Shown here piece after piece: positions 3 through 27,211 of a stretch of 32,000 nucleotides of DNA (positions are counted from its first letter, which is position 1; every line of letters starts with the position of its first letter). The translations under genes were made by a program, and so were the position numbers. Source of the DNA: Promethearchaeota archaeon (GTDB lineage: Archaea > Asgardarchaeota > Hermodarchaeia > Hermodarchaeales > Hermodarchaeaceae). The notes beneath the pieces were generated by a model. The model saw only the letters and a list, made by a program, of their open reading frames with translations, did not search any database and was not told the origin of the DNA. The stretch is taken from assembly GCA_048938295.1 (NCBI GenBank), contig JBHLMI010000011.1:34270-66269 (forward strand). Direction: 5' to 3'.

Positions 3-602
3 CGTGTAGAAGATCACGGACGGTATATCCTTTTGCTAGTTAGTGTGATTCTTCTCGTTATTGGGGTTGCTGAATTTTTCCACTTTAGTTCTCTACTCTC
101 TTGTATGATTTTAGGTATAGTGATTGGTAACCGAGTTCCGAAGCAGGCTCAAGAACTGAGTCATGAGGCAGAAAAAATCATCAGTCCCGTAATCCTCTTT
201 TTCTTCGTTCTCTTCGGTGCCGGGATGATCGACCCGGTCGTGATAACAATCGGAGGCCTATTCATTGTTACGACGACCATCCTTTACGTAATGGGGCGAG
301 GTTTGGCGAAATATTTCGGAACGCGTTTAGTCGCCACTCTTGGTGACAACCCTCCATCAGTTAAACGTTACCTCGGATTATGCCTCTTTAGTCAAGCTGG
401 CGTTGCGGTGGGATTGAGCGTGGTGATCGCGGAGCAGCTAAATCAGCTCGGGTTCCCCAGTTACGCGTTTCTAATTATTGGTGTTATTGGAATCTCAACG
501 CTTATTTTCCAAATCTTTGGACCCCTAGCGCTAAAATTTGCCATCCATCGCGCTGGTGAAGCCAATAGTAATTCTGATCAAAATCTCATAAATCCGGGTT
601 GA
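3..602 (+). CDS. Cation:proton antiporter (Na+/H+ exchanger family), 5'-truncated by window edge
   Basis: Frame is open from position 3 (RVEDHGRYILLLV...). Multiple hydrophobic helices, plus the motifs FFVLFGA, RGLAKYFG and LCLFSQAGVAVGL typical of CPA antiporter C-terminal halves. Confidence 0.85.
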   Translation, partial: RVEDHGRYILLLVSVILLVIGVAEFFHFSSLLSCMILGIVIGNRVPKQAQELSHEAEKIISPVILFFFVLFGAGMIDPVVITIGGLFIVTTTILYVMGRGLAKYFGTRLVATLGDNPPSVKRYLGLCLFSQAGVAVGLSVVIAEQLNQLGFPSYAFLIIGVIGISTLIFQIFGPLALKFAIHRAGEANSNSDQNLINPG

Positions 603-2823
603 GTTTTCGGAACCGCATTCGCCACAATGCATAGGTTGCTATTACGCCTATGACACTGACTATACCGATAATGGGGATGAGAGGTCCAAAGAGTGAGGGG
701 GGATGCACGTAAATGTTGATATGGGTTTCGCCTACTCCACCATCGTCATCAGTGACTGTAAGACTAACACGATATAATCTTGGGGCGGAGGCGAGGATTC
801 CCATTTCAGGTCCTTCAAAGGTTACTGTGGGGTAATGACTGGTGCTGGTTTCGGGCGTTGCTCCGTCTCCAAACTCCCAGTAATAGGTGAAGGTATCTGC
901 GGTTCCCGGGTCTGTGACCGTTAATCCGAATCCGATGGTATCTCCGGCTGCGATATGCGTGTCGGCCGTCAGCGTTAAGGTGGGCGCTACGTTATGTATC
1001 ACAAAGGGTTGGGTCTGGACTTCACTATAGCAGAGTCCATCGGAGGCTTGGACATGAACATCAACCTCTTGGTTGTCTGGATAGGTGTGGGCGATTAGCG
1101 TAGTTATCCACCCCGTATCCCAAACGGCGTCGCCGTCCAGATCCCAGCGGAAGGTGAGGGAGGGGCTGTCATAGTCCATGAAGTGCCACCAGTCGGGGTC
1201 AAAGGTGCATTCTTCGCCTTCATCTAACTCATTGGGGCCTGAATAATAATAGGGGTTGGTCGGTGGGAAATTCGCTAGGGATTTAACACGCAATGAGGGG
1301 TCGCCATAAAGCAGGAATTTTAGGGGTTGGTGATAGCCGGCTACCTTGAACCAGGCGCCACCGGAGGTAATACTGGTTTCTCCTCGTCCAATCGCCCCCA
1401 AATTAGTGCCGTCCATCGTTTTGGGCGTATCGCAGTAGCGGGTTACCATATCCCGCCACATATCACCTAATAGACAATGATCGGTATAGTTCTGGAAGAA
1501 GAACAAATCCAGGTATGAATTCCAGGCTTGAGCACCGGACACACACGCAAAGTACCCCATGGCACCACGCCATCGTGTCCGCGTCAATAAGTGTTCAGCG
1601 AATGAATCTACCGTGTCCGCTTGAAGGCAGGCGGGTGGGGGAAGGGTGGGGTCACCGGCCACAGGCCATAATTCTCCGTTGTTAATTCCCAAATGGGCTG
1701 TTCCGTATACATCCAGATAGGCTTCGTAGGGCGGTTCCGGACCGATCTTACCTGTCCCACATCCAGCACTGAAGACCACAGGCCACTTTGTGGTGGTGAG
1801 TGTTGGAGAGCTAATCGAGGACGTGAAGAAGCAGTTCGCCCAGGCCTGAGGATTACCATGACCACCAAAATTCACAAATCCCACGCCTGTATTTAGGCGG
1901 GCAATAATATTGGCTTCAGTTGGTGCACCATCAGTCAATGAGGCCGCTAATCCATTGATGCTAGCGTTGTAGAGCCGAATTGGATTGAAACCTTCATCTT
2001 TGGTCAGGGCAGTGGCGTTAATGGCTTCTTTCGTCGTCAGGTAAGTTTCATCCAAATCATCATCGGGTGAGTTAGGAACAATAAAAAGCACATTGTTAAA
2101 CCAGCTCCCCAAGTTAAACCCCTCATATTGGAGGATTTTTTCAACGTAATTTCGCACCTCTAGGGTGGTGGATGCTGGAACACGACCAATTGCTAAATCG
2201 GGGATCAAGTCGAGTCCTTCAAAATTAATGGGATCCGAAGTAAAATATTCGCCATGGAACTCACCATAGATATGGTTAGCATTAGGGTCCCAATCATAGT
2301 AAGTGCCAGCAGGGCCAATTAGATCGGCGTAGTATAAGTCACAGGGAAAATAACACCCATACCCGTCCACATCATTGGAATCATTCTGTAGGCGATCTGT
2401 ACATTGATACCGCACGGGAAACATCTCACAATCACCAACTAACATCACATAATCAGCTCGTCCTGTCTGGTGACGGAGCTGTATACCCTTGCGAATTCGG
2501 GCTGCCTCATCCCACCCATAAAACGAGTTGTTGAAGTATTGCCAACTGGTTAGCTCAACGTCAAATCCAGTACGGGCTTTCCACTCGGCTAACGGCTCTA
2601 ATTCAGCCAAAAAATCCTCATGGGCAATAATAAGCAACGAGGGCAAACCATTAACAAAAGCCACCGCTGGTTCTTCCCTTTCGCAGGTATCAGTCAATAC
2701 TAACTGCCCATATCCATCGCTTCCAACTATTACACATGCTGTTTCCGAGTTACCCGCGGAAAACAAAAGTAGTCCAAGAAGACTCAACAATAACACTGAT
2801 ACTATGCCGGATCGATTCCACAC
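586..2823 (-). CDS. Secreted, membrane-anchored C25 (gingipain-like) cysteine peptidase with C-terminal PKD-like domain(s)
   Basis: C25 motifs YVMLVGD, CDLYYADL, PDLAIGRVP, catalytic His in FGGHGNPQAW and Cys in FSAGCGTG, and LLYGDPSL. PKD-like YYWEFGDG...VSLTVTDDDG follows, then a C-terminal TM helix with basic tail. Start is refined to GTG 2823 (GGGGAG upstream, followed by a signal peptide); the ORF track starts at 2907. Confidence 0.85.
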   Translation of the reverse strand: MWNRSGIVSVLLLSLLGLLLFSAGNSETACVIVGSDGYGQLVLTDTCEREEPAVAFVNGLPSLLIIAHEDFLAELEPLAEWKARTGFDVELTSWQYFNNSFYGWDEAARIRKGIQLRHQTGRADYVMLVGDCEMFPVRYQCTDRLQNDSNDVDGYGCYFPCDLYYADLIGPAGTYYDWDPNANHIYGEFHGEYFTSDPINFEGLDLIPDLAIGRVPASTTLEVRNYVEKILQYEGFNLGSWFNNVLFIVPNSPDDDLDETYLTTKEAINATALTKDEGFNPIRLYNASINGLAASLTDGAPTEANIIARLNTGVGFVNFGGHGNPQAWANCFFTSSISSPTLTTTKWPVVFSAGCGTGKIGPEPPYEAYLDVYGTAHLGINNGELWPVAGDPTLPPPACLQADTVDSFAEHLLTRTRWRGAMGYFACVSGAQAWNSYLDLFFFQNYTDHCLLGDMWRDMVTRYCDTPKTMDGTNLGAIGRGETSITSGGAWFKVAGYHQPLKFLLYGDPSLRVKSLANFPPTNPYYYSGPNELDEGEECTFDPDWWHFMDYDSPSLTFRWDLDGDAVWDTGWITTLIAHTYPDNQEVDVHVQASDGLCYSEVQTQPFVIHNVAPTLTLTADTHIAAGDTIGFGLTVTDPGTADTFTYYWEFGDGATPETSTSHYPTVTFEGPEMGILASAPRLYRVSLTVTDDDGGVGETHINIYVHPPSLFGPLIPIIGIVSVIGVIATYALWRMRFRKLNPDL

Positions 2824-2903
2824 CGTTAATACTCCCCTATAACGGGTATCGATAGGCTTTACTGCTATTCCCAAAATAAATCTCTTGTCATAAAGGGCGT
2901 GTA

Positions 2904-3752
2904 TCAAGTCGAAGATTTACAGTATTTTTTGAATAGAGAACTGGCCTCAGCTAAGGTCATAGGGAGTGGCTCGTGACCCATTTGAGGAATAAGTTTCGTG
3001 GCATTGTGAAATAGTTGGGTAACTATCGGAGGGGCTAAGTGTGCATTATCCAGCATTTTCGCATTGGAGAAGATTTCTGCGACAGATCCCGCCCCGATGA
3101 ATTTGCCTTCATAAAGAACGTAAGCGCGGTCTGCAATTAATGGGACGATATTGACATCATGTGTAGCGGTGATGATGGTGAGATTGCCTTCTGAATAAAG
3201 CTTAGATAAGAACTTGGCAAATTCATTTCGCGTACGTGGGTCCATATGGGCGGTGGGCTCGTCAAAGACTAGAATTTGGGGGCGCATGGCAAGCACTGAT
3301 GCGATAGCTGCTCGTTTCTTTTCTCCAACGCTTAGATGATGCGGAGGCTTTTCCTTTAAATGGCTTAAATCCACCACATTCAATGCTTCGTCGACACGCT
3401 GGTTCACCTCTTCGTCTGTAAGCCCCATATTGAGTGGCCCAAAGGCAATGTCTTCCCAAAGTGTTGGCATGAACAGCTGGTTATCCGGTTCCTGAAAAAC
3501 TAACCCAATGGCTACCCGAAATTCATGGACATTTTTCGCCGTGAGCTCCCTATTGAGAATTTTAATAGTTCCCTTGGTCGCTTCAAGGATTCCACACATT
3601 ATTGAAAGTAGGGTGGATTTTCCCGCTCCATTTGCACCAAGAATTACAGCGCGTTCGTGTAAACCCACTTCAAAATCGATATCTTGTAGGGCAATGTGCC
3701 CATCTGGATACCGATATTGCACATTCTTCATATTTACAGCACAATGAACCAT
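2904..3752 (-). CDS. cbiO: ECF transporter ATPase (CbiO/NikO)
   Basis: Walker A GANGAGKST, Q-loop LVFQEPDNQLF, signature LSVGEKKR, Walker B VFDEPT, H-loop ATHD. ATG 3752 lies 3 nt past the cbiQ stop; the ORF track starts at 3764. Confidence 0.93.
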   Translation of the reverse strand: MVHCAVNMKNVQYRYPDGHIALQDIDFEVGLHERAVILGANGAGKSTLLSIMCGILEATKGTIKILNRELTAKNVHEFRVAIGLVFQEPDNQLFMPTLWEDIAFGPLNMGLTDEEVNQRVDEALNVVDLSHLKEKPPHHLSVGEKKRAAIASVLAMRPQILVFDEPTAHMDPRTRNEFAKFLSKLYSEGNLTIITATHDVNIVPLIADRAYVLYEGKFIGAGSVAEIFSNAKMLDNAHLAPPIVTQLFHNATKLIPQMGHEPLPMTLAEASSLFKKYCKSST

Positions 3753-3754
3753 TT

Positions 3755-4588
3755 CTAAAACCAACCTCCAAACAAGGTAACCGGGAACAGAAGGGGTGCG
3801 AAGAAGACAAGAGCGGTGATGCCCAACAGGCCGATGACAAATCCGTAATCCTTCAGCCCCATTTTCAGATGGGTTAATAGGTGGAACTGTCCCGTAAAGC
3901 CTCGGGCGATCATTGTTTGATAGACTCTTTCTCCCCGTTCATAAGCCCGGATAAAGAGTGTTCCAATCATACTTGATATGGTGCGCCATGTTCGCAATCG
4001 GAAAACCCGTTCCTTCTTCACCATTCGGGCTTCTCGGGCTAGCCCCATGCGATAGGCTTCATCCGTAAAAAGGAAAATGTAACGATACGTGAGGGCTGTT
4101 AGTGAAACGAAAAGGCTAGGCAATCGGAGCCGTTGCATTCCGTGTAGTAAAACTGGAAACCGGGTTGAAAGAGTCAGTAAGCTCAAAGCCGCGACACAGA
4201 CCCATATGCGCATCCCAAAAATCGCGGCTCGAAGAAGTCCTTCAACAGTTATCCCTATTAGCCAGGTTCCAAGTGGAATGACAAATATGAGCGTTCCCGG
4301 GGTAATGAATGGCAAAGGAATGATAATAATCACTGAAAAGATTATCACCATTGATTGACGACTAAAAAACGCTCGCAAGGGGATTCGGGAAGCAACGGCT
4401 AGCCCTGTCAAGAACAATAATAGAATCGCAAATTGTAGGAGATTTTGCATCAGAACTGTGAAGATGATAACACAAGTTAGTCCAATAAGCTTGACGCGAG
4501 GATCAATGCGTTGAAGTAGTCCATTTCGACTCGCATACTTCTCAATGGCGAGGCTCTCACCCAGCACCTTCAATAATTCTTTAAACAT
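3755..4588 (-). CDS. cbiQ: ECF transporter T component (CbiQ/NikQ)
   Basis: LQRIDPRVKL N-terminal motif, TYRYIFLF, AREAR, and RAYERGERVYQTMIARGF coupling helix. Start uncertain (ATG 4588 or GTG 4612). Confidence 0.92.
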   Translation of the reverse strand: MFKELLKVLGESLAIEKYASRNGLLQRIDPRVKLIGLTCVIIFTVLMQNLLQFAILLLFLTGLAVASRIPLRAFFSRQSMVIIFSVIIIIPLPFITPGTLIFVIPLGTWLIGITVEGLLRAAIFGMRIWVCVAALSLLTLSTRFPVLLHGMQRLRLPSLFVSLTALTYRYIFLFTDEAYRMGLAREARMVKKERVFRLRTWRTISSMIGTLFIRAYERGERVYQTMIARGFTGQFHLLTHLKMGLKDYGFVIGLLGITALVFFAPLLFPVTLFGGWF

Positions 4589-4617
4589 ACCCGTTCGATT
4601 CCTTCTTGCCACGAATG

Positions 4618-4908
4618 TTATTCTTTTCGTCGTAACCTGACTAGTAACCACATGAGCCCAAAGGTTATCCCAAGGATGAGCACAACAAAAACCATACCTA
4701 ACAGGAAATTGGAGAGTAGTACGCCTTCAAGTCCAGGAATCTCATAATCGGGGAAAAGGGGAATCCATAATTCCCATTCTGGGGCTCCAAACAAGTTGGC
4801 AATGACATCAAGGGTTTCGTTTGCAAAACCCAACCAGATAACTCCAATCGCCACGAATATGATGGCGATGAGAACACCACCCAGCATGAGCTTATATTTT
4901 TGGTCCAT
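4618..4908 (-). CDS. PDGLE-domain / NikN-like accessory membrane subunit
   Basis: Two TM helices flank a loop with PLFPDYEIPGLEG (PDGLE-like). Lies between cbiM and cbiQ, with GGAGGTG upstream of ATG 4908. Confidence 0.8.
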   Translation of the reverse strand: MDQKYKLMLGGVLIAIIFVAIGVIWLGFANETLDVIANLFGAPEWELWIPLFPDYEIPGLEGVLLSNFLLGMVFVVLILGITFGLMWLLVRLRRKE

Positions 4909-4910
4909 GG

Positions 4911-5609
4911 TTAGAGCACCTCCTCTAATTTGGGGCTCCAATCTCCTGTGATGGATGGGACCACACGCTCAATGACCAGAAGGTCAGGACGTACACCATC
5001 AATGACCAACAGAATAACTACTGTAGCACCCCCTTCAATGACTCCGATAACAGAATGATGTACTCCCATCGCAATTAACGCAATGGGGGTTGAGTAGGGG
5101 AAGAGGGGATAGGAAAATCCGAGCATAATCGCAGCAGAAATTGCCGCCAAAAAATCACCAAAAAACGCGGCAGCAAACCCACCGACAATCATGCCTGTGC
5201 GGTTGGGTGAGATTCGATAGATCAGAACGAAGATAACCCAGGGGATAAAAACTCCAACAATACCCATGTTGACGATATTAGCCCCTAGCGTAAGGATGCC
5301 TCCGTCGCCAAAGACCAAGGCTTGAATCACCAGAATAACGGTCATGGAAACAAGTGCCGCATAGGGCCCGAGGGTAATGGCAAGAATAGGTCCTCCTAAG
5401 AGGTGGGCGGTTGTTCCGCCAATTATGGGGTAGTTCATCATTTGGGCAGCAAAAAACATGGCCGTTAAAGTTGCCATCAGTGGGATTTGTTTCTCGTTGA
5501 AGTTCCGTTCAAGGCGCCAGAAAGCGAATGCCAGTAGAATGATCGCAATTGCCCACATGATGGCGGAGAGGAGGATGGTGAGAAAACCGTCCGGGATATG
5601 CATGGTCAT
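4911..5609 (-). CDS. cbiM: ECF S component CbiM/NikM (nickel probable)
   Basis: MHIPDGFL N-terminal metal-binding motif, GGTTAHLLG, QALVFGDGGILTLGAN, conserved HH...IEG. Start is ATG 5609 or ATG 5603. Confidence 0.93.
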   Translation of the reverse strand: MTMHIPDGFLTILLSAIMWAIAIILLAFAFWRLERNFNEKQIPLMATLTAMFFAAQMMNYPIIGGTTAHLLGGPILAITLGPYAALVSMTVILVIQALVFGDGGILTLGANIVNMGIVGVFIPWVIFVLIYRISPNRTGMIVGGFAAAFFGDFLAAISAAIMLGFSYPLFPYSTPIALIAMGVHHSVIGVIEGGATVVILLVIDGVRPDLLVIERVVPSITGDWSPKLEEVL

Positions 5610-19333: not shown

Positions 19334-20080
19334 TTATTCGAACAGGGTGGTGTCCAGGCTTGCTTTTAATTCGCTAATTATCTCTTTTACAGTGGCTTCC
19401 CGCAGATTCAACACTTCAGAAATACGTCTTATGCTGTCGTCATGGGAATCAATGGCATGGTGCAAGACGCGGCGGGCATCGGGGCTATCAATTTGCTGCA
19501 CCATCTTGCGGGTTTCTTTCATCACGCTGTTTCGAATGTAAAGGAGAACCAGTTTTTCTTCTTCGAGGTAATCGAGGTGTTCATCTATATCTGTTAGAAT
19601 CTCTGCTAAGTGATCGATTTTCCTCTCTTCTTTAGGATATTTGAAAAGTTCCTTCACTCGATTCAGGAAGGCTGCTGCCTTTTCAGAAAGGGTTTCTTGG
19701 TCTGGCTCTACATCAAAGGCTATTACTTTCTCTTTGAAGAGATGTGGACCGATGTTCACCATGATAGCGAGGCTCTTGTTTAAGAAGTAGATTCGCCGTT
19801 TGGGTCCTTGAGGGCTTGTTTCTTTAGCAGACTCAACGAGCTGTGCCTTTTCCATGATTTTAAGATGTTTGGCGACAAGTTGTTGACTTAAATTGAGGTC
19901 TTTGGCAAGCTGGAGAGGGTAATTGGGTTCTTGGCTTAAACGTTGGATAACTAGTCGGCGAATGGGGCTGTCTAAAATTCGCAAAATTGAATCGAGCTCG
20001 GTATCGCGTCTCGGTTTGACTCCAGTTTCCTTTCCTTTTTTGGAAGTTGATACAATCTTTTTTTTGCTCTTACTATTCAT
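19334..20080 (-). CDS. ArsR-type wHTH regulator, Phr/HSR1-like heat-shock repressor
   Basis: LRILDSPIRRLVIQRLSQEPNYPLQLAKDLNLSQQLVAKHLKIMEKAQLV...GPKRRIY, then a coiled coil and a second HTH-like C-terminus. Adjacent to hsp20 and shares its operator. Confidence 0.75.
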   Translation of the reverse strand: MNSKSKKKIVSTSKKGKETGVKPRRDTELDSILRILDSPIRRLVIQRLSQEPNYPLQLAKDLNLSQQLVAKHLKIMEKAQLVESAKETSPQGPKRRIYFLNKSLAIMVNIGPHLFKEKVIAFDVEPDQETLSEKAAAFLNRVKELFKYPKEERKIDHLAEILTDIDEHLDYLEEEKLVLLYIRNSVMKETRKMVQQIDSPDARRVLHHAIDSHDDSIRRISEVLNLREATVKEIISELKASLDTTLFE

Positions 20081-20176: not shown

Positions 20177-21871
20177 TCACGCTGTAACAACCTCAATTTT
20201 GAGTTTGGGTTTACTAATCACTTCACGTTGTTCTTTGAGGATGTTTCGGGCAATGTCTAAGGCTGTTTCATCATCGTAGACGCCTTGAGCGTTTTTCCGT
20301 GCTTCTTGGAGCATCTGACGCTGCACCTTGAGTTTCAAATCCCCAATGGTCAACGCACCAATACCATAGTTTTCAGGAATTAGCTCACGAAAATCATCTG
20401 TAGGAGTTAGAGATTCGATTCCACTTGGAGGTACAGCATTTACATCCAATAGAATTTTTGTCCCTAAAACAGATTGCAGCTGTTCGAGTGATACTAATTG
20501 AATACCCGGAGAGCCAACAGCGAAAATAAGGTTAGCATCCTCTAGAAGTTCATGAAGGTCATCAGGTGAAGTTGATTGCACGCCTTCCACTTTATTACTC
20601 TCGATTGAGGCCCGGTGCGCTACTTCTCTGGCCCGGTCAATATTTCGTGAGGTTAATACTGTCAGCGCTCCACTCTTGGAAAGTAAATGAGCCACACTTT
20701 CTCCAACTGGTCCTGTACCTGCAAGAACTAACGCAATGTTACTTTTGAGTGAACCTTGGTTAAGTCTGCGCAGAGCTTCCTCAGCTTTGGCAACCATAGC
20801 CGCCGCCGTGGAAAATGCACCGTGTGGATCAATAATTACTGCCGTTTCGAAAGGTTTCACCATGGCCTTTTGAATTCTGTCTGCCATTTGACGAGCAAGG
20901 GAAACCTGACGTCCTCCAACAAAGAAGCAAAGATGCTTTACTCCCTTGGTTCCCCTTGAAAAGATAGCATCTTGGACTAAGTCTTGAATCCGATCAAGCG
21001 ACACTCCAGAATATGGAACTACAACATCAAATCCTGCGTCGTACGCTACACAGATATCAAACGGGCTAGCGTGGTCATCCGCTTCTAGGAAAAAAAGAAT
21101 GTCACTTAGTTTTGTTTTTGGGCGCTTAATCACTGGCACAACAGAAACCGAAGAAACTCCTGTGAGCTCCGTCATGCCTTTCATTTCCTCTTTTGGCACT
21201 TCTGAAAGAATTCGTTTGAAGCTTATAGGGACCACATCTACCTCCAAGGATTGCAAAAGTTCCATTAAACCTTGGAAATGTCTGGGGCTGCTCAAGTGAA
21301 ACGTGGTTATTCGCTTCTTCTTAAGAAGTTCAGCTTGTTGTAAAATCCCCATAGTAATCCAGCTTTCACGGATTCCAAATTGTACTTGTCTAATTTCCTC
21401 TTCAAGTTCATCGTGCAAGTACTGACCATAGGCGACAAGCCGATCTATTTTGTCTTGCACACTTGGAGTTATTTTTTCATCTGATAGGATTCTTAACCCG
21501 TCTAAGACCTCATTGCGCTTTTCCAGTTTCAACTTGATACTCCGTGAGAGGTATGAGTGAGCGAACTCGTCCATTTCAACCGCATAAAAAGGGATCTTTA
21601 ATTTTGAGAATACATCCGCTACTGGGTTGTCTTCACGGAATTCCTTCAAGCTCCGCAGACCCAATTCATCGGTGGCAAAATCTGGTGACTCTGATTCAGC
21701 AATCTGCTTGATCATATCGCAATAAGCCATTGAAGGGCGTTTTATTGCAGAAATCTTCGATTCAGATTCAGAAGGAGGGGAATGAATGAGCCAAGGTTCG
21801 TCATAGGCCTTTCTAATTAGGAAGACCCGCAATTTTTTCCCACTTAAAGGGGCAAGCTCTAACGTTTTCAA
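20177..21871 (-). CDS. Fusion: N-terminal TraB/ChaN/EreA-like domain plus NAD(P)-dependent methylene-H4MPT/H4F dehydrogenase (MtdA-like)
   Basis: C-terminal ~305 aa: SPFDICVAYDAGFD, QDAIFSRG, FVGG, DPHGAFSTAAAMV, VLAGTGPVG, LTSR, DVNAVPPSGI, GALTIGDLK. N-terminal ~235 aa is soluble, with PDFATDEL, RE and RHFQGLMELL. TTG start with AGGTGA RBS. Confidence 0.85.
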   Translation of the reverse strand: MKTLELAPLSGKKLRVFLIRKAYDEPWLIHSPPSESESKISAIKRPSMAYCDMIKQIAESESPDFATDELGLRSLKEFREDNPVADVFSKLKIPFYAVEMDEFAHSYLSRSIKLKLEKRNEVLDGLRILSDEKITPSVQDKIDRLVAYGQYLHDELEEEIRQVQFGIRESWITMGILQQAELLKKKRITTFHLSSPRHFQGLMELLQSLEVDVVPISFKRILSEVPKEEMKGMTELTGVSSVSVVPVIKRPKTKLSDILFFLEADDHASPFDICVAYDAGFDVVVPYSGVSLDRIQDLVQDAIFSRGTKGVKHLCFFVGGRQVSLARQMADRIQKAMVKPFETAVIIDPHGAFSTAAAMVAKAEEALRRLNQGSLKSNIALVLAGTGPVGESVAHLLSKSGALTVLTSRNIDRAREVAHRASIESNKVEGVQSTSPDDLHELLEDANLIFAVGSPGIQLVSLEQLQSVLGTKILLDVNAVPPSGIESLTPTDDFRELIPENYGIGALTIGDLKLKVQRQMLQEARKNAQGVYDDETALDIARNILKEQREVISKPKLKIEVVTA

Positions 21872-21896: not shown

Positions 21897-22027
21897 TTAA
21901 GGCTTCTTCCCATCTGAGAAAAAGGCGATGAAAATTTATTTTAGATGAAAAAAGACAATTTTTATAGTCAAGCTCGTTGCCCAAGGCAAATTGTGAACTA
22001 GATCGGGGCAGATATCTTAAGTTCAAA

Positions 22028-23371
22028 TCATGTTTTTCGTTCTCCAGCTTCTCTAAATCTATAATCTGTATGAGCTGCACAAGAAACGCAGGGATCAAAA
22101 CATCGAACAGCCATCATAGCCCGTTCAAGGATTTTTTCATTTGGCCAACCAAGATTTATGCAAGCACTCATGACGTTTTGTACAATCACCGCTATCGCAC
22201 GGGCATTAAGCTCTGTTGGCACTCGAATGTCGATATCTTTGATTCTGTTGCTACTATTTGTACTTACTCGGTAAAGGAGAATTCCCCGTGGAGCTTCAAC
22301 TGCACTAGCTCCGATTCTAGTTCCTGGTGTCAACCCAATTGAAGAGTCTTCATCTTTCGACCATTCTGTTTCCAACAGGTTGATTGCATTTGTGAGAGCG
22401 AATTCCATTTCGTCAATTCGAAGAAGCCCGGTTTGGAACAGGTTAGGCACTCCTATGTACGATTTCTTACTTTTCGTTGGCTTAGACTGAAGTACAGCTA
22501 GTCGGGCATAAGGCCCCGCTAAGAGATTCTTGGATTCGTCGTTTGATTTGATGTAGACAACTTTTGTGGGGGCATCTAACAGGTCCTGCTCCACTAAGTA
22601 TTCAGAGAAATCATCACAGGCAACGGTTTCATGTGTTCCATCATCAGAAATGAAATGGACCTGATTAAGACCAGAAAACCGGTTGGCCTTTGTTTCAAAG
22701 GAGCTAATATAAAGTGGAAGAGGAAGTGCATAGTGTTGGATTTCCTCTTCGATTTCATCTAGTAGCGAATTGTAGTATTCTTTAGTCCATTTCACTCCCG
22801 AGAGCGTTGAAGAAAGTTGTTGGATAAGATCTTGCTGTTGAGTGCTATTGATGTTTTGAACGACTCCACCTGGAATCAGGTTAAAGGCTAAATTAGTATT
22901 ACCTGCTGTTGCGGTGATTAACGCTTCTGCACACTCGTATAATTTTGTAGCAATTGGTAGAACTCGTGGTTGCATGCGATCAATGCCAAGGATGTCTTGT
23001 CGAGAGATTTGGTTTGTAAGATACATCAAATCAGCCAAAGTAGAAAAGAACACACTATATGTGTGCGATCGGATGATTTCTCCCAAGAGCGCCAGTTCGC
23101 GGATTAACTCGGCAATTGGGGGAATTGATACATCTGTAGTCGATTCAATTGCTTTTATTGCTCCTATTCTATGGGCAACTGGACAAATTCCACAGATCCG
23201 CGGAACAATTTTTGGTAAGTCATTAATGTGTTGTCCAATTAGAACGTTCAAAAAGTCCCGTGCCGTTGGCATGTTATATACAACATTTGTTATGCGATCT
23301 TTGTCTCGCGTTACAATGAGCTTGCTTTCGCCTTCTATCCGTGTCATTGGTAAGGATAGTCGAATTTTCAT
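22028..23371 (-). CDS. mvhA: Group 3 [NiFe]-hydrogenase large subunit (MvhA-like), divergent
   Basis: TRIEG, L1 PRICGICPVAH, GPYAR, EAPRG, VPT, L2 FDPCVSCAAH, then a 13-aa C-terminal extension. ATGA overlap with the mvhG stop. Confidence 0.88.
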   Translation of the reverse strand: MKIRLSLPMTRIEGESKLIVTRDKDRITNVVYNMPTARDFLNVLIGQHINDLPKIVPRICGICPVAHRIGAIKAIESTTDVSIPPIAELIRELALLGEIIRSHTYSVFFSTLADLMYLTNQISRQDILGIDRMQPRVLPIATKLYECAEALITATAGNTNLAFNLIPGGVVQNINSTQQQDLIQQLSSTLSGVKWTKEYYNSLLDEIEEEIQHYALPLPLYISSFETKANRFSGLNQVHFISDDGTHETVACDDFSEYLVEQDLLDAPTKVVYIKSNDESKNLLAGPYARLAVLQSKPTKSKKSYIGVPNLFQTGLLRIDEMEFALTNAINLLETEWSKDEDSSIGLTPGTRIGASAVEAPRGILLYRVSTNSSNRIKDIDIRVPTELNARAIAVIVQNVMSACINLGWPNEKILERAMMAVRCFDPCVSCAAHTDYRFREAGERKT

Positions 23372-24102
23372 TGTTTAAACTTCAGCTCCGGTTTTTGATA
23401 TCTAAAAGCGAGAGCCGCATACTTACGAATGGCGTCGCTGACTTTTATGAGAGAGAAGAAATTAGCGAGAGTCGAGGGTAGATTCCGGTCTATGGCACCC
23501 ATACAGCCATCACAGGGAGTGGCTCCCTTAATACAAAGGGCTTCACACCCTGCACGGGTTATTGGGCCTAAACAGAGTATTCCCTCGCGTAAAAAACAGC
23601 TTTGGGGAGGGCGTACGTTATGTAAGGACGTTATCTCAACATCAAATGCTTGATCTTGGGCAAACGGGCATTCTCCACACACGTTTTTGTCAGGGAGTTC
23701 GATTTCAGAACCATCAATTGCGCTCATCAACAGATTTCCAAGTAACTTTCGTGGTGGCGGACAGCCAGGTAATGACATGTATAAGTCAACGAATTTACTG
23801 ATGGGATCTATACGCATGTTGGGGGATTGGCTCATTATTCCACCGAGAACGGCACAGCTTCCCAAAGCGATGATTTTGGTTCCTGCGGTCCATAGTCTTC
23901 GAAGAAGTTCCGCGTCTTCATCTCGAGTGACTCCACCTTCTACAAATGCGATATCTAAATCCGTGTCAACTTGAACATCAGAGATTAATCGAAACACACG
24001 AATATCAACTGATTTAAGGAGTTCAGGGAATAGGGCGCTACCAAGTATGGCAAACATACACCCGCTACAGGAGTTTAGTTGAAGAAAACCAATCTTAGTC
24101 AT
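23368..24102 (-). CDS. mvhG: [NiFe]-hydrogenase small subunit (MvhG-like)
   Basis: SCSGC, VEGGV, ALGSCA..GGI, LPGCPP, VCGECP, CFL..G..CLGP.TRAGC.A.C....PC.GC.G. TAATG overlap with the hdrA fusion stop. Confidence 0.9.
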   Translation of the reverse strand: MTKIGFLQLNSCSGCMFAILGSALFPELLKSVDIRVFRLISDVQVDTDLDIAFVEGGVTRDEDAELLRRLWTAGTKIIALGSCAVLGGIMSQSPNMRIDPISKFVDLYMSLPGCPPPRKLLGNLLMSAIDGSEIELPDKNVCGECPFAQDQAFDVEITSLHNVRPPQSCFLREGILCLGPITRAGCEALCIKGATPCDGCMGAIDRNLPSTLANFFSLIKVSDAIRKYAALAFRYQKPELKFKQ

Positions 24103-26630
24103 TAGCCTAATAGCTCCTCTAATTCAGTGGAAAATTGATTGACCTGGTTCGCGAACACGTGACCTTCAACGGCTGACACATTCAATACGCGTACACGTTT
24201 TTGTAGTTCGTCTCCATAAAAATCTGCGAGAACACCAATTCGTGTCTGAGCCTTCTTGATACCCTCAAAGAACCGGCAAGCTGTTTCATGACAGCCAACA
24301 ACCATAACACCATCAAATCCGTGGTTTAACGCTGTTATTACATAATTTGCATCGATTGAACCCGCGCATGGCAGTCTAATGACCATTGCACCAGGATCAT
24401 AGTCCAGTCGACGAATGCCTGCATTATCCACTGCCGGGTATCCACATGAGTTGCAGGAAAACACAATTATTCGGGGGGAGGCTGTGCTCATTGAGAGGGC
24501 ATTCATTGCAGCTTGAACCTCCTCCTGAATTGGAGGGGAAGCCAGAGCTCCGGTTGGGCATATTGCGATGCAGGCTCCACAGCCTTCACATTTTAGCGTA
24601 TCGATACGAAGTGTGTCAGCTATGATGGCGAGAGCGTTAAAGGGACAGGACTCTACACAGAGATTACAAAGCCCACATTTTTCTTGATTAATTTGAATTG
24701 GTATGTCCCCTGCAGGGAGGCTATCTTTTCCTAATAGAAGAAGAACTTCTAATGCGGTATCTCGAGAATCTGCTACTAAGTCGGCATAAGCTTTAGGACC
24801 AGTTATAGACCCACAAGCCCAAATACCTGAGGATAAGCTCTTTGGGTCAATGAAACCTCGTCTATCCAAGGAAAAATTCGTCATACTACGAAGGGTTAGC
24901 TGTTGGTCTCCTGGCGTCATACCCATATTGAGAACAATAAGATCTGCTGGGAATGAATTTGAATCAGTTTGGATTAAGCGTTTATGCCCCCGATGAATGA
25001 TCTTAATGCTTTCACAAAAGTGAATATGAGAATATTCTGGGATGAAGGTGCTTCGATCAGGGGGAATTAAGGCTATCTGGTAAAGGACATTGATGGAAGT
25101 ATTGGGCGCCTTTTTTTCTACAATCTCTAGGTATTTGAGCGCGAGGTTACAGCAGTAGTTTGAACAAGCCTTGGTTCGGTTCTGACATTGAAGAACAATT
25201 ATGGAACGGGCAGGTTGGCCGGTTGTTGGGCAGATTATATTGCCTCCTGTTGGTCCATCAGGCGCTAGCATACGTTCAAATTCGGATGAAGTGATAATAT
25301 CCTTAGCAGGGTTATATTGAATTGCTCCTTGAGATGGCAAGGTTTTAGGATCGCATACTTCTGCGCCTGTTGCAAGAATTATGGCACCAACCGTGAACTT
25401 CTTGGTTACAGGTTCTTGATCAAGATTAATCGCTTTAGATGGGCATGCTTTTTCGCATTTTCGGCATGTCCGGCAAAAATCAATATCCTCCTGTTCAATG
25501 ACGGGTCTACTAGGATATGCGGCAGGGCAAGGCACATGGATGAGTTTACGTTGGCTAATATGGTACTCAAATGCATCTGGACGAGACTCAGGACACGTAT
25601 CGACACAAGAGCCGCACATTATGCATTTTGATAAATCGACATATCGGGGCTGTTGCAGAGCAGTAATCTCATAATTGCCAATTGTTCCTGAAATATCGGA
25701 GAGTTCGGTATTAGTAAGAATTCGTATGTTCCCTGAAAGCATAACTGAGGATACATCCTCAGCAATCATACATGGACCACAATCGATAGCCCCATAGATG
25801 CTTTCCCATCGCCGCGCGATTCCACCTAGACATGACTCTTTCTCTAGCAGAATAATGGAATAGTTGGATTGAGCCAAAACCTTGGCAACCTCTACTCCAG
25901 CTAGTCCACCACCAATGATGGCGGCACTTTTCCGAATTGGTAACGTACGCTTTGGAATTGAGACCCGATGCCGGAGCATCTCAGCGCTGGCCCGTATTAG
26001 AAGTAACGCTTTTTCTGTGGCTTGCTCGGGTTTATTTCTATGAACCCAAGCACAATGTTCACGTATGTTCGCGAATTCAATGGGTATATCCAATTGCATT
26101 CGAATAGCGGTAAACATTTGGCTGTGAAGGTGAGGGGAGCAGGCTGCAATTACAAGATTATTCAGAAAATACCGATCACACCATGCTTTTAGTTTCTCAA
26201 CGTTTTCTAACAAACATAAATGCTGAAACACCATTGTACGTTCAACATATGGCAGATCATTGACTTTCTCCATAAGCTCCCCGACATTAATGGCTTGATG
26301 AATTTCCTCCCCACAAGAACAGACAATTACGCCAATACGGAAAATTGCTCCTCGTGAATCCGCTTCGCTCAGATCGATTGCCTCTCCGGCCATCAATTGT
26401 TCCTTGGCGGTCATTAGGCGGATTGCATTTGTTCCTGCGGCGGAAAGTTGATAGAAGCCATTCCGTTTCTCTATGAACCCCTCCAGTTTTTTGAGATGAT
26501 AATTGAAGAGACCTGTTTTCGTGAGCCCTAATCTTTTCATCAAATCATTATAGGTGATTAGTCGTTCAGCGTCTAATATTCGAAGAATTTGTTCGCGGAG
26601 TGGATGGGCCAAAGCCGCATATACATTCAT
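24102..26630 (-). CDS. hdrA: Winged-helix HTH :: HdrA :: MvhD triple fusion protein
   Basis: aa 1-80: wHTH (ALAHPLREQIL...GLFNYHLKKL...YQLS..G). HdrA part: IGVIVCSCG, AACSP, NIREHCAWVH, IIGGGLAG, DCGPC, two inserted CxxCxxCxxxCP, EFERM, CSNYCC, two C-terminal ferredoxin motifs. MvhD part: FSCNSCGYP, RLPCAG, DGV..VGC....CRF..G. Confidence 0.9.
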   Translation of the reverse strand: MNVYAALAHPLREQILRILDAERLITYNDLMKRLGLTKTGLFNYHLKKLEGFIEKRNGFYQLSAAGTNAIRLMTAKEQLMAGEAIDLSEADSRGAIFRIGVIVCSCGEEIHQAINVGELMEKVNDLPYVERTMVFQHLCLLENVEKLKAWCDRYFLNNLVIAACSPHLHSQMFTAIRMQLDIPIEFANIREHCAWVHRNKPEQATEKALLLIRASAEMLRHRVSIPKRTLPIRKSAAIIGGGLAGVEVAKVLAQSNYSIILLEKESCLGGIARRWESIYGAIDCGPCMIAEDVSSVMLSGNIRILTNTELSDISGTIGNYEITALQQPRYVDLSKCIMCGSCVDTCPESRPDAFEYHISQRKLIHVPCPAAYPSRPVIEQEDIDFCRTCRKCEKACPSKAINLDQEPVTKKFTVGAIILATGAEVCDPKTLPSQGAIQYNPAKDIITSSEFERMLAPDGPTGGNIICPTTGQPARSIIVLQCQNRTKACSNYCCNLALKYLEIVEKKAPNTSINVLYQIALIPPDRSTFIPEYSHIHFCESIKIIHRGHKRLIQTDSNSFPADLIVLNMGMTPGDQQLTLRSMTNFSLDRRGFIDPKSLSSGIWACGSITGPKAYADLVADSRDTALEVLLLLGKDSLPAGDIPIQINQEKCGLCNLCVESCPFNALAIIADTLRIDTLKCEGCGACIAICPTGALASPPIQEEVQAAMNALSMSTASPRIIVFSCNSCGYPAVDNAGIRRLDYDPGAMVIRLPCAGSIDANYVITALNHGFDGVMVVGCHETACRFFEGIKKAQTRIGVLADFYGDELQKRVRVLNVSAVEGHVFANQVNQFSTELEELLG

Positions 26631-26704
26631 CTTGGGGTCCTTCTCGTGATTTCTGTGGAGAAATACCTTAGATAACTCTAATTGTCAAGAAACATAACTT
26701 AGAC

Positions 26705-26772: not shown

Positions 26773-27018
26773 TTACATCTTTTTACTCTCAGAAGTAGGA
26801 ATGGGAGCACGATAGCGCGTTTGATAGCAATTGCGGCAAATGTAGCGAGGCATAACGTTAAGCGCACCACACCATGGGCATTTCCAAAAATCGATCGTTG
26901 TTAGTGTCACATCGGCCTCACGTCGGATATAACGACAATGCTGGCATAAACGTAAATGAATAAAATTTGATACTCCACATTTCGGACACGTCCAATACTT
27001 CAAATTCCACCACCCCAC
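26773..27018 (-). CDS. Small protein with two RanBP2-type zinc fingers
   Basis: WTCPKCGVSNFIHLRLCQHC and WKCPWCGALNVMPRYICRNC both fit W-x-C-x2-C-x3-N-x6-C-x2-C exactly. GTG start; downstream terminator. Confidence 0.75.
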   Translation of the reverse strand: MGWWNLKYWTCPKCGVSNFIHLRLCQHCRYIRREADVTLTTIDFWKCPWCGALNVMPRYICRNCYQTRYRAPIPTSESKKM

Positions 27019-27211
27019 GAGGATCTCTTATTGCTACTTTCTCATTAAATCTCCTAAGTTGTGCTATAGGATGCGCGGGTTTCATAGCGACTCTATATTG
27101 ATTTCAGCCGAATCTTCACATCCTAGCATATAGTAGGAGGGAACGAAAAAACAAAAACACTCTGAAAAACATCATTTCCAAAGTGTGACAAATAATTTTA
27201 TCTTGAGCTTG

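Follow-up and report, generated by a model that had tools for sequence, protein, structure and literature searches.

Gene organization of the locus

The analyzed window was a stretch of 32,000 nt of an Asgard archaeal genome (G000:C66:34270-66269; genome size 2.52 Mb, 91.6% complete), and the system studied in it comprised three minus-strand genes, in which an HdrA-MvhD polypeptide carrying an N-terminal winged helix-turn-helix (wHTH) domain was followed by the two subunits of a [NiFe] hydrogenase. The first gene (24102-26630, minus strand) encoded a fusion protein of 842 amino acids (aa), in which Pfam recognized DUF7347/HTH_20 at aa 3-71, the HdrA core at aa 98 to ~710 and MvhD/FlpD at aa 721-840. 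The second gene (23368-24102, minus strand, 244 aa) encoded an mvhG-like hydrogenase small subunit of the Oxidored_q6 family with 12 Cys for three Fe-S clusters, and VhuG was its best NCBIfam model. The third gene (22028-23371, minus strand, 447 aa) encoded an mvhA-like [NiFe] large subunit (NiFeSe_Hases; best model VhuA) with the pairs C60/C63 and C428/C431 and a C-terminal extension of 13 aa past His434. The fusion gene and mvhG overlapped at TAATG (ggcTAATGact, 24104-24100), and mvhG and mvhA overlapped at ATGA (caATGAaa, 23371-23368).

The first-pass annotation of this DNA had described three tightly coupled minus-strand genes, a winged helix at the N-terminus of the first and the lack of hdrB and hdrC in the window. 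These statements held: the open reading frames (ORFs) and both overlaps were verified, DUF7347 scored above its Pfam cut-off with ArsR matches in PDB and the expected topology in an AlphaFold2 (AF2) model, and no CCG domain (HdrB) was matched on the contig or in Pfam scans of the window ORFs.

Distribution and phylogeny of the fusion

A phylum-wide six-frame search of 400 Asgard species genomes found the full-length fusion including the wHTH (query 1 to ~840) in 106 of them, in eight GTDB families, besides contig-truncated copies. The protein database held ~55 clusters with 36-80% identity, all of which carried PF24038, and the nearest named relatives were from Hodarchaeota metagenome-assembled genomes (80% identity). 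When a tree was built from only the HdrA part, the 52 proteins with the wHTH grouped in one clade (support 1.0), apart from 40 wHTH-less Asgard HdrA-MvhD proteins. This clade split into clade A (0.95), to which the genome studied here belonged, and clade B (1.0), which was of the Loki/Hel type. The fusion is thus real, ancient and widespread; it is not an oddity of one assembly, the circumstance that the first-pass annotation had named as fatal to its proposal. Three clade-A members with 40% identity (P0028-P0030) came from contigs of which NCBI labels one Thermoproteota; the family may extend past Asgard, or that contig may be mis-binned.

The order hdrA-mvhG-mvhA was kept in 20 of 20 orthologous loci.

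The winged helix and its tether

The ArsR-like wHTH occupied aa 1-80 of the fusion (26391..26630, minus strand), as delimited by Pfam, PDB matches, AF2 and conservation. DUF7347 (PF24038) matched with 51.2 bits against a cut-off of 27.6, HTH_20 matched with 24.1 bits, just under the Pfam cut-off, and the best ArsR structure match was 1y0u (E 0.0015). The AF2 model on the family alignment had a mean predicted local distance difference test (pLDDT) value of 86.9, with 83-91 over the wHTH, and displayed an H-H-H-wing-H topology with the recognition helix at aa 39-48 (TGLFNYHLKK), the wing at aa 53-62 and a C-terminal helix at aa 64-80. Ten positions, L7, H9, R12, T39, G40, N43, H45, Y60, L62 and G66, were invariant in 44 orthologs, and the recognition helix TG(Q/L)(L/F)N(F/Y)HLKK was retained down to 29% wHTH identity (range 29-100%).

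The domain thus had the fold and the recognition helix by which ArsR/SmtB proteins are identified. The ArsR/SmtB repressors (PDB 1Y0U, 6J05) share with it the fold and the recognition pattern (T/S)xxxx(N/S)xHLxxL; their operators are palindromic, as is the candidate operator described below. However, the domain studied here had no ArsR-type metal site and belonged to DUF7347 in Pfam, and its sensor would be the fused redox enzyme.

A flexible linker (aa 81-98; 26337..26390, minus strand) joined the wHTH to the HdrA N-terminal domain, as judged from AF2 and from poor alignment conservation. Its pLDDT was 58-60, with residues 87-95 below 50, and because the linker was predicted to be disordered, the wHTH appears to be tethered and not buried. 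Complex prediction for two wHTH copies (aa 1-97) reached a score of 0.39, the mark being 0.42, and was used neither for nor against dimerization.

Cofactor-binding motifs

The HdrA core (24492..26336, minus strand) matched the PDB HdrA 8rvu_a with an E value of 2.7e-91 over aa 98-709. It contained the N-terminal [4Fe-4S] ligands C104, C106, C139 and C164, a FAD-binding thioredoxin reductase (TrxR)-like domain with GGGLAG, D283-C284-C287 (the DCGPC pair) and K499, and inserted and C-terminal 2x[4Fe-4S] ferredoxin domains. The Fe-S Cys were conserved at 0.96-1.0 in 52 orthologs, and K499, D283, C284 and C287 were invariant, so that the N-terminal cluster, FAD motif, Cys pair, ferredoxin domains and FAD lysine by which HdrA is recognized were all present. 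The [2Fe-2S] MvhD domain at the C-terminal end of the fusion (aa 719-842; 24105..24476, minus strand) matched Pfam FlpD (3.8e-32) and PDB 5odc_D (E 1.3e-19), and its C726, C729, C755 and C785 were invariant. The fusion was distant from described HdrA proteins: its best NCBIfam model, HdrA2, reached 527 bits against a cut-off of 1100, the HdrA and HdrA2 models both being far below cut-off, and its HdrA part was ~32% identical to the closest HdrA-MvhD paralog in the same genome.

The TrxR-like domain differed within the family. The cluster motif 'HA4', C482-x6-C489-S-x2-C493-C494 (CSNYCC; 25149..25187, minus strand), had its four Cys here and in clade A, and all four were lost in clade B (52-58% conservation). 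Compared with the canonical motif CxGSRDx6-8CSxxCC and with wHTH-less Asgard HdrA-MvhD proteins, GSRD read QNRT in this genome and the four Cys were kept. From its domain position, and as Wagner et al. 2017 reportedly describe, we take this CSxxCC motif to be that of the TrxR-domain cluster in solved Hdr-type complexes. In those complexes, the cluster carries the high-potential electron from FAD to HdrBC or an equivalent (PMC13580544; preprint 10.64898/2026.04.10.717634). Two further blocks, DIRxxGK..EEFY and HxKxxPS, were deleted family-wide from the TrxR-like domain of the fusion relative to wHTH-less Asgard HdrA-MvhD. A regained NAD(P)H binding in the clade-B domain was considered and rejected, as no GxGxxG-like motif was found at that position.

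In MvhG, the 12 Cys were conserved at 0.95-1.0 in 20 orthologs. MvhA, with 5odc_F (MvhA) as its best PDB match (E 1.7e-35), retained RICGIC and DPCVSCAAH, and two of its motifs were altered, RIEGH to RIEGES and APRGxLxH to APRGILLY. The ligand motifs of the Mvh/Vhu type (RxCGxC at L1, DPCxxC at L2) and a three-cluster small subunit were found; the curated cut-offs were missed, with 116 vs. 800 bits for VhuA and 121 vs. 450 bits for VhuG. By best hits, the hydrogenase would belong to group 3 (Mvh-like) and be 3c-like.

The Glu of RxEGH is reportedly the proton gate in standard [NiFe] hydrogenases (Dementin et al. 2004). In the mvhA orthologs of family f31 (L059-L062), this Glu was replaced by Gly or Leu and EAPRG read ESSRG, ENSRG or ESARG, with the four Ni-Fe Cys kept. 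Several mvhA orthologs of clade B (L063, L064, L068-L071) ended at the His of DPCxSCxxH and had no C-terminal maturation peptide; clade-B MvhA retained canonical RxEGH and EAPRGxLxHH motifs.

Taken together, the ligand chain for the cofactors was complete, comprising the Ni-Fe site, three Fe-S clusters, the [2Fe-2S] cluster, the Cys pair with FAD, and the clusters of the N-terminal and ferredoxin domains. The first-pass annotation had claimed eroded catalytic motifs in both HdrA and MvhA. As all cofactor ligands were intact in this genome, that claim was only partly right: it failed at the Ni-Fe and Fe-S ligands and stood for second-shell or unassigned blocks of the two proteins.

Absence of HdrBC from the locus, and Hdr and Mvh clusters elsewhere in the genome

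No hdrB or hdrC was directly attached to the triad in any of the 20 loci, and no hdrBC flanked it in 19 of them. In the remaining one, the Loki locus L069, an HdrD-like CCG gene was found downstream and was paired with its own HdrA-HdrA-MvhD protein of 1186 aa. The association with HdrB/HdrC that is expected of an HdrA was thus missing on this contig and in 19/20 loci. None of the 12 CCG matches of the genome lay on this contig; they were distributed over C7, C43, C22, C51, C23 and C5.

The occurrence of canonical hdr/mvh genes elsewhere in the genome, which had been proposed as a check, was confirmed. Contig C51 contained hdrCB, hdrA with an in-frame TGA, and mvhDGA; C23 contained hdrA-mvhD plus hdrCB; and further hdr/mvh clusters were located on C36, C5 and C25. 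The in-frame TGA was in the hdrA (G000:C51:20423-22387) of a canonical-looking hdrCB...hdrA-mvhD-mvhG-mvhA cluster, and it may encode selenocysteine. Selenocysteine has been reported for HdrA of Asgard archaea (PMC11227280; PMC11291895).

Here, one explanation to be considered is that the triad is a conventional bifurcating Mvh-Hdr complex which borrows HdrBC in trans, its extra domain being incidental. The four HA4 Cys kept in clade A, including this genome, and the hdrBC genes on C51 and C23 would suit such a complex. However, each of those hdrBC sets had its own hdrA, hdrBC was not adjacent to the triad in 19/20 loci and the CCG gene of L069 was paired with its own 1186-aa HdrA, clade B was without HA4, and the NCBIfam HdrA models gave 527 vs. 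1100 bits. We consider this explanation highly improbable.

The wHTH-hdrA operon of the Loki loci L069 and L070 began with a FrhB-like gene. In the Loki g53 genomes (L069, L070, L071, L134, L135), the cluster was situated within a larger 'Hdr island', which contained FrhB-like genes, a split HdrA-like protein (~130 + 470 aa), an HdrD-like CCG protein (409 aa) and double-HdrA-MvhD proteins (1037-1186 aa).

A palindromic candidate operator

Upstream regions of the fusion orthologs shared a recurring 18-bp palindrome, TGAYAA-N6-TTRTCA. In a set of 72 non-redundant 300-nt regions, the exact core was present in 41 regions with 46 sites, whereas 300 dinucleotide shuffles yielded 0.18 on average and at most 2. 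With spacers of 2-5 or 7-11 there were 0-1 sites, with the everted arrangement none and with the direct arrangement 2. GACAA-N6-TTGTC shared first place with an A/T-run palindrome when exact 5-mer palindromes were counted in an unbiased way, and the flanking T and A were conserved too. The match was perfect (12/12) in 33 regions and had one mismatch in 13 more.

Two intergenic sites with the exact core were found at the locus itself. The candidate operator O1 (26670..26687; TGACAATTAGAGTTATCT on the gene strand) was located at -57 to -40 from the hdrA ATG, a position that suggests repression by promoter blocking. The candidate operator O2 (27186..27203; TGACAAATAATTTTATCT) was located 168-185 nt upstream of a small ORF encoding two zinc ribbons, and a second site equivalent to O2 was present in the genus relatives L054-L056. 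Between the mvhA stop and the start of the neighboring gene, a fusion with an MtdA-type dehydrogenase that is described below, there was a degenerate candidate operator with two mismatches, O3 (21953..21970; TGACTATAAAAATTGTCT on the gene strand). The corresponding gap had sites with 0-1 mismatches in L054-L062, and sites between mvhA and the MtdA fusion occurred in families f1 and f31. An operon of the MtdA fusion and its N-domain ~10 kb from hdrA was also preceded by such sites, a perfect one in G188 and two with one mismatch in G184. In the Loki loci, including the Hdr island of the g53 genomes, candidate sites lay in divergent promoters shared with other Hdr-type operons.

The palindrome followed the wHTH. 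It was found upstream of none of 24 HdrA paralogs without the wHTH, taken from the same genomes or from related ones (regions of 298-551 nt), where the best match had at least two mismatches. The own 2.52-Mb genome contained 14 core sites, of which 12 were inside ORFs of at least 100 aa and the only two intergenic ones were those of this locus. In four other genomes, 1-3 of 2-7 strict sites were at the cluster, and the reversed-pattern control gave 1-3. The palindrome thus appears essentially absent elsewhere in these genomes, and the candidate regulon looks local, comprising the own operon and the linked MtdA-fusion and Hdr-type operons. A palindrome that is private to the cluster and tracks the wHTH provides strong indirect support for a role of the wHTH in DNA binding.

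Possible function of the complex

A DNA-binding domain on the polypeptide of an enzyme together with a candidate operator at the enzyme's own promoter is what characterizes a trigger enzyme, and both were found here computationally. Judging from its sequence, we propose, with middling confidence, that the triad encodes an Asgard-specific self-regulating [NiFe]-hydrogenase/HdrA module, probably a redox- or H2-responsive trigger enzyme and not a heterodisulfide reductase. In such a module, an HdrA dimer would place two wHTH domains on the palindrome. In solved Hdr complexes, a mobile arm that includes HdrA's N- and C-terminal domains moves between redox states (PMC12350162; PMC13580544). Since the HdrA N-terminal domain of this swinging arm is the one that bears the wHTH, the reduction state could set the occupancy of the operator. 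The reduction state in turn might be set by H2 through MvhA or by ferredoxin through the ferredoxin domains of HdrA, and the complex would then be a kinase-free one-component redox- or H2-responsive regulator. It most likely would still turn over as an enzyme, with an acceptor other than HdrBC. Because the regulon looked local and some Loki operons included a FrhB-like gene, a pure sensor fits no better than a trigger enzyme. A more specific form of the proposal is that of a kinase-free H2 sensor, in which the redox-driven swing of the HdrA arm moves the wHTH on and off the operator and so switches one-carbon (tetrahydromethanopterin (H4MPT)/NADPH) and Hdr-type operons; this form is possible, and we regard it as tentative.

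Several observations weigh against this proposal. No site with 0-1 mismatches was found within 300 nt in 26 of the 72 upstream regions, of which at least two (G188, G193) had an extra FrhB-like gene between promoter and hdrA, and family f28 had only sites with two mismatches. The sequencing runs listed for this DNA came from sediment, soil and mangrove and were all DNA runs, with no RNA run among them. A trans-acting factor may be what occupies the palindrome, and the wHTH of BamF, from the HdrA-type complex of class II benzoyl-CoA reductase, is a protein interface. Indeed, the wHTH of the fusion could be a protein-protein adaptor and the palindrome the site of an unlinked transcription factor. 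The inter-subunit role of the BamF domain and the HTH_20 score just under the Pfam cut-off speak for an adaptor. The disordered tether, however, speaks against it, as do the invariant T39, G40, N43 and H45 of the recognition helix, the palindrome that is private to the cluster in each genome and missing from wHTH-less paralogs, and the lack of any other conserved DNA-binding gene nearby. An adaptor therefore seems improbable to us.

A rather unlikely alternative is an autoregulated, purely metabolic enzyme, in which operator binding by the wHTH would serve only to adjust synthesis to demand, with no H2 or redox signal involved. For example, free or unassembled HdrA might repress its own operon, and the complex might be a ferredoxin-linked (or other) cytosolic hydrogenase. 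This would agree with the intact cofactor ligands, the C-terminal maturation extension kept by MvhA here, the local regulon, and the FrhB-like first gene of the operon in Loki g53 with Hdr-type modules flanking it. However, it leaves unexplained why the wHTH is on the mobile redox subunit with a recognition helix invariant over the whole history of the clade, and also the lineage-specific erosion, namely that clade B is without the HA4 Cys and that four f31 orthologs no longer have the proton-gate Glu.

The opposite view, the strong form of what the first-pass annotation had inferred, is that of a dedicated sensor, which would have negligible turnover and report H2 or the redox state of ferredoxin to DNA as a regulatory paralog of a metabolic Mvh-Hdr. 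The canonical hdr/mvh clusters elsewhere in the genome, the loss of the HdrBC-feeding cluster in clade B, the family-wide deletion of two TrxR-domain blocks, the loss of the proton-gate Glu in f31, several clade-B MvhA without the C-terminal extension as in regulatory hydrogenases, and the Loki operator sites in front of other Hdr operons with their own HdrA would all be in line with it. Against this, the RxEGH and EAPRGxLxHH motifs of clade-B MvhA were canonical, the FAD lysine and Cys pair were invariant, some genomes had recruited a FrhB-like catalytic subunit to the operon, and a metallo-complex of ~1500 residues would be a high price for controlling two or three operons. A dedicated sensor is quite unlikely in our estimation, and we lean towards a trigger enzyme that both turns over and regulates its own operon.

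Comparison with known systems

The closest known system was the MvhAGD-HdrABC complex of hydrogenotrophic methanogens (PDB 5ODC, 8RVU, 9SW2), which has the same subunit families and cofactor chain and provided the best PDB matches for all three proteins. In comparison, the Asgard module had no HdrBC partner gene, MvhD was fused to HdrA, a wHTH was added, two TrxR blocks were deleted, half of the family was without HA4, and the identity was low. The HdrA2(-MvhD fusion)B2C2 of Methanosarcina acetivorans likewise contains an HdrA-MvhD fusion polypeptide (PMC5296606). Unlike the protein described here, that HdrA2 works with HdrB2C2 and has neither a hydrogenase nor a DNA-binding domain. A wHTH inside an HdrA/MvhD-type electron-bifurcating machine is also known from BamF of class II benzoyl-CoA reductase (preprint 10.64898/2026.04.10.717634). 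There, it forms an internal interface on the MvhD-like subunit, whereas in the fusion it was tethered at the N-terminus of HdrA and accompanied by a matching palindrome.

There are two kinds of regulatory proteins with which the proposed function can be compared. The first are the regulatory [NiFe] hydrogenases HoxBC/HupUV (group 2b), in which H2 sensing controls transcription via HoxJ-HoxA. Their signal is passed on by a histidine kinase and a response regulator, whereas the complex described here has a DNA-binding domain of its own. Like regulatory hydrogenases, some clade-B MvhA were without the C-terminal extension; the MvhA of this genome had its 13-aa extension. The combination that defines group 2b, no C-terminal extension and a partner kinase with a response regulator, was not found here, and the scanned window ORFs included no kinase or response-regulator gene. 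To our knowledge, all characterized H2 sensors consist of a hydrogenase, a kinase and a response regulator.

The second are PutA (a ribbon-helix-helix domain on a flavoenzyme) and BirA (a wHTH on a biotin ligase), in which an N-terminal DNA-binding domain on an enzyme represses the enzyme's own operon; in PutA, the redox state of the flavin controls binding to DNA or to the membrane. Compared with these two, the system described here would be an archaeal multi-subunit metallo-hydrogenase complex with an ArsR-type wHTH. In full-text literature searches, neither a fusion of a DNA-binding domain with HdrA or with a hydrogenase subunit nor the name DUF7347 turned up. Enzymes that double as repressors are known (PutA, BirA), and there is a sizeable chance that the complex is the first H2 sensor to work without a kinase.

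Models of syntrophy in Asgard archaea and of eukaryote origins give a central place to hydrogen exchange, and how Asgard archaea sense H2 or redox state is the gap that this complex would address. A whole hydrogenase-flavoprotein electron chain is joined here to a DNA-binding domain, and the arrangement is conserved in more than 100 Asgard species. With a candidate operator and a candidate regulon defined, the latter including the own operon and the MtdA-type methylene-H4MPT dehydrogenase fusion, the idea can be tested with an oligonucleotide and the 97-residue domain. It also offers a handle on the function of HdrA without HdrBC, which is relevant to the numerous orphan HdrA paralogs of archaea and bacteria.

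The MtdA fusion and other neighboring genes

The gene next to mvhA (20177..21871, minus strand, 564 aa) encoded an MtdA-type dehydrogenase (aa 258-544) preceded by a TraB/ChaN/Tiki-like N-domain (aa 1-257). The C-terminal half was a full NADP-dependent methylene-H4MPT dehydrogenase (PDB 6tlk/1lu9, E ~5e-40; Pfam Mpt_N). Since the genome contained canonical Mtd, Mch and CdhC, the fusion appears to be an accessory enzyme. It adjoined the triad in 14/20 loci; in families f1 and f31 the two shared a strand, and in f20, f14 and f21 they were transcribed divergently. Within f1, eight of 19 genomes had the MtdA fusion, seven of these eight also had the wHTH-HdrA, and the other 11 genomes had neither, so that both genes were acquired or lost jointly in this family.

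The N-domain had no Pfam match at E <= 5 and no Foldseek match in PDB at E <= 0.001, and its sequence relatives were Asgard hypothetical proteins only. Its AF2 model was confident (pLDDT 82.5) and, in the AlphaFold database, resembled TraB/ChaN/Tiki/GumN proteins with TM scores of 0.35-0.47 for named matches and 0.65 for the unnamed top match. The domain formed an Asgard-restricted family, with free-standing proteins of ~205-243 aa and up to three paralogs per locus (L063/L064); in Loki loci, free-standing paralogs of ~220 aa occurred alongside the fusion. The MtdA-like protein is unlikely to receive electrons directly from HdrA, because its MtdA domain offered neither a flavin nor an Fe-S site and conserved Cys were almost lacking in its N-domain. 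A 565-aa ORF beside the closest HdrA paralog on C25, considered as a homolog of the 564-aa neighbor, was unrelated to it by BLAST.

Downstream of the MtdA fusion, an ArsR/HTH_5 gene (19334-20080, minus strand, 248 aa) was considered as the source of an operator-binding factor and rejected, as it was absent from the 20 other loci; no other DNA-binding gene was conserved across these 20 loci. Just upstream of hdrA, the small ORF mentioned above (26773..27018, minus strand, 81 aa) encoded two RanBP2-like zinc ribbons (W-x-C-x2-C ... N ... C-x2-C), and the ORF was followed by a hairpin and a T-run. The position of this ORF was conserved within the genus only. At the far end of the window (586-5609, minus strand), a secreted-looking Peptidase_C25 + PKD protein of 773 aa was located beside a cobalt/nickel-type energy-coupling factor (ECF) transporter consisting of CbiM, CbiQ and an ABC-ATPase.

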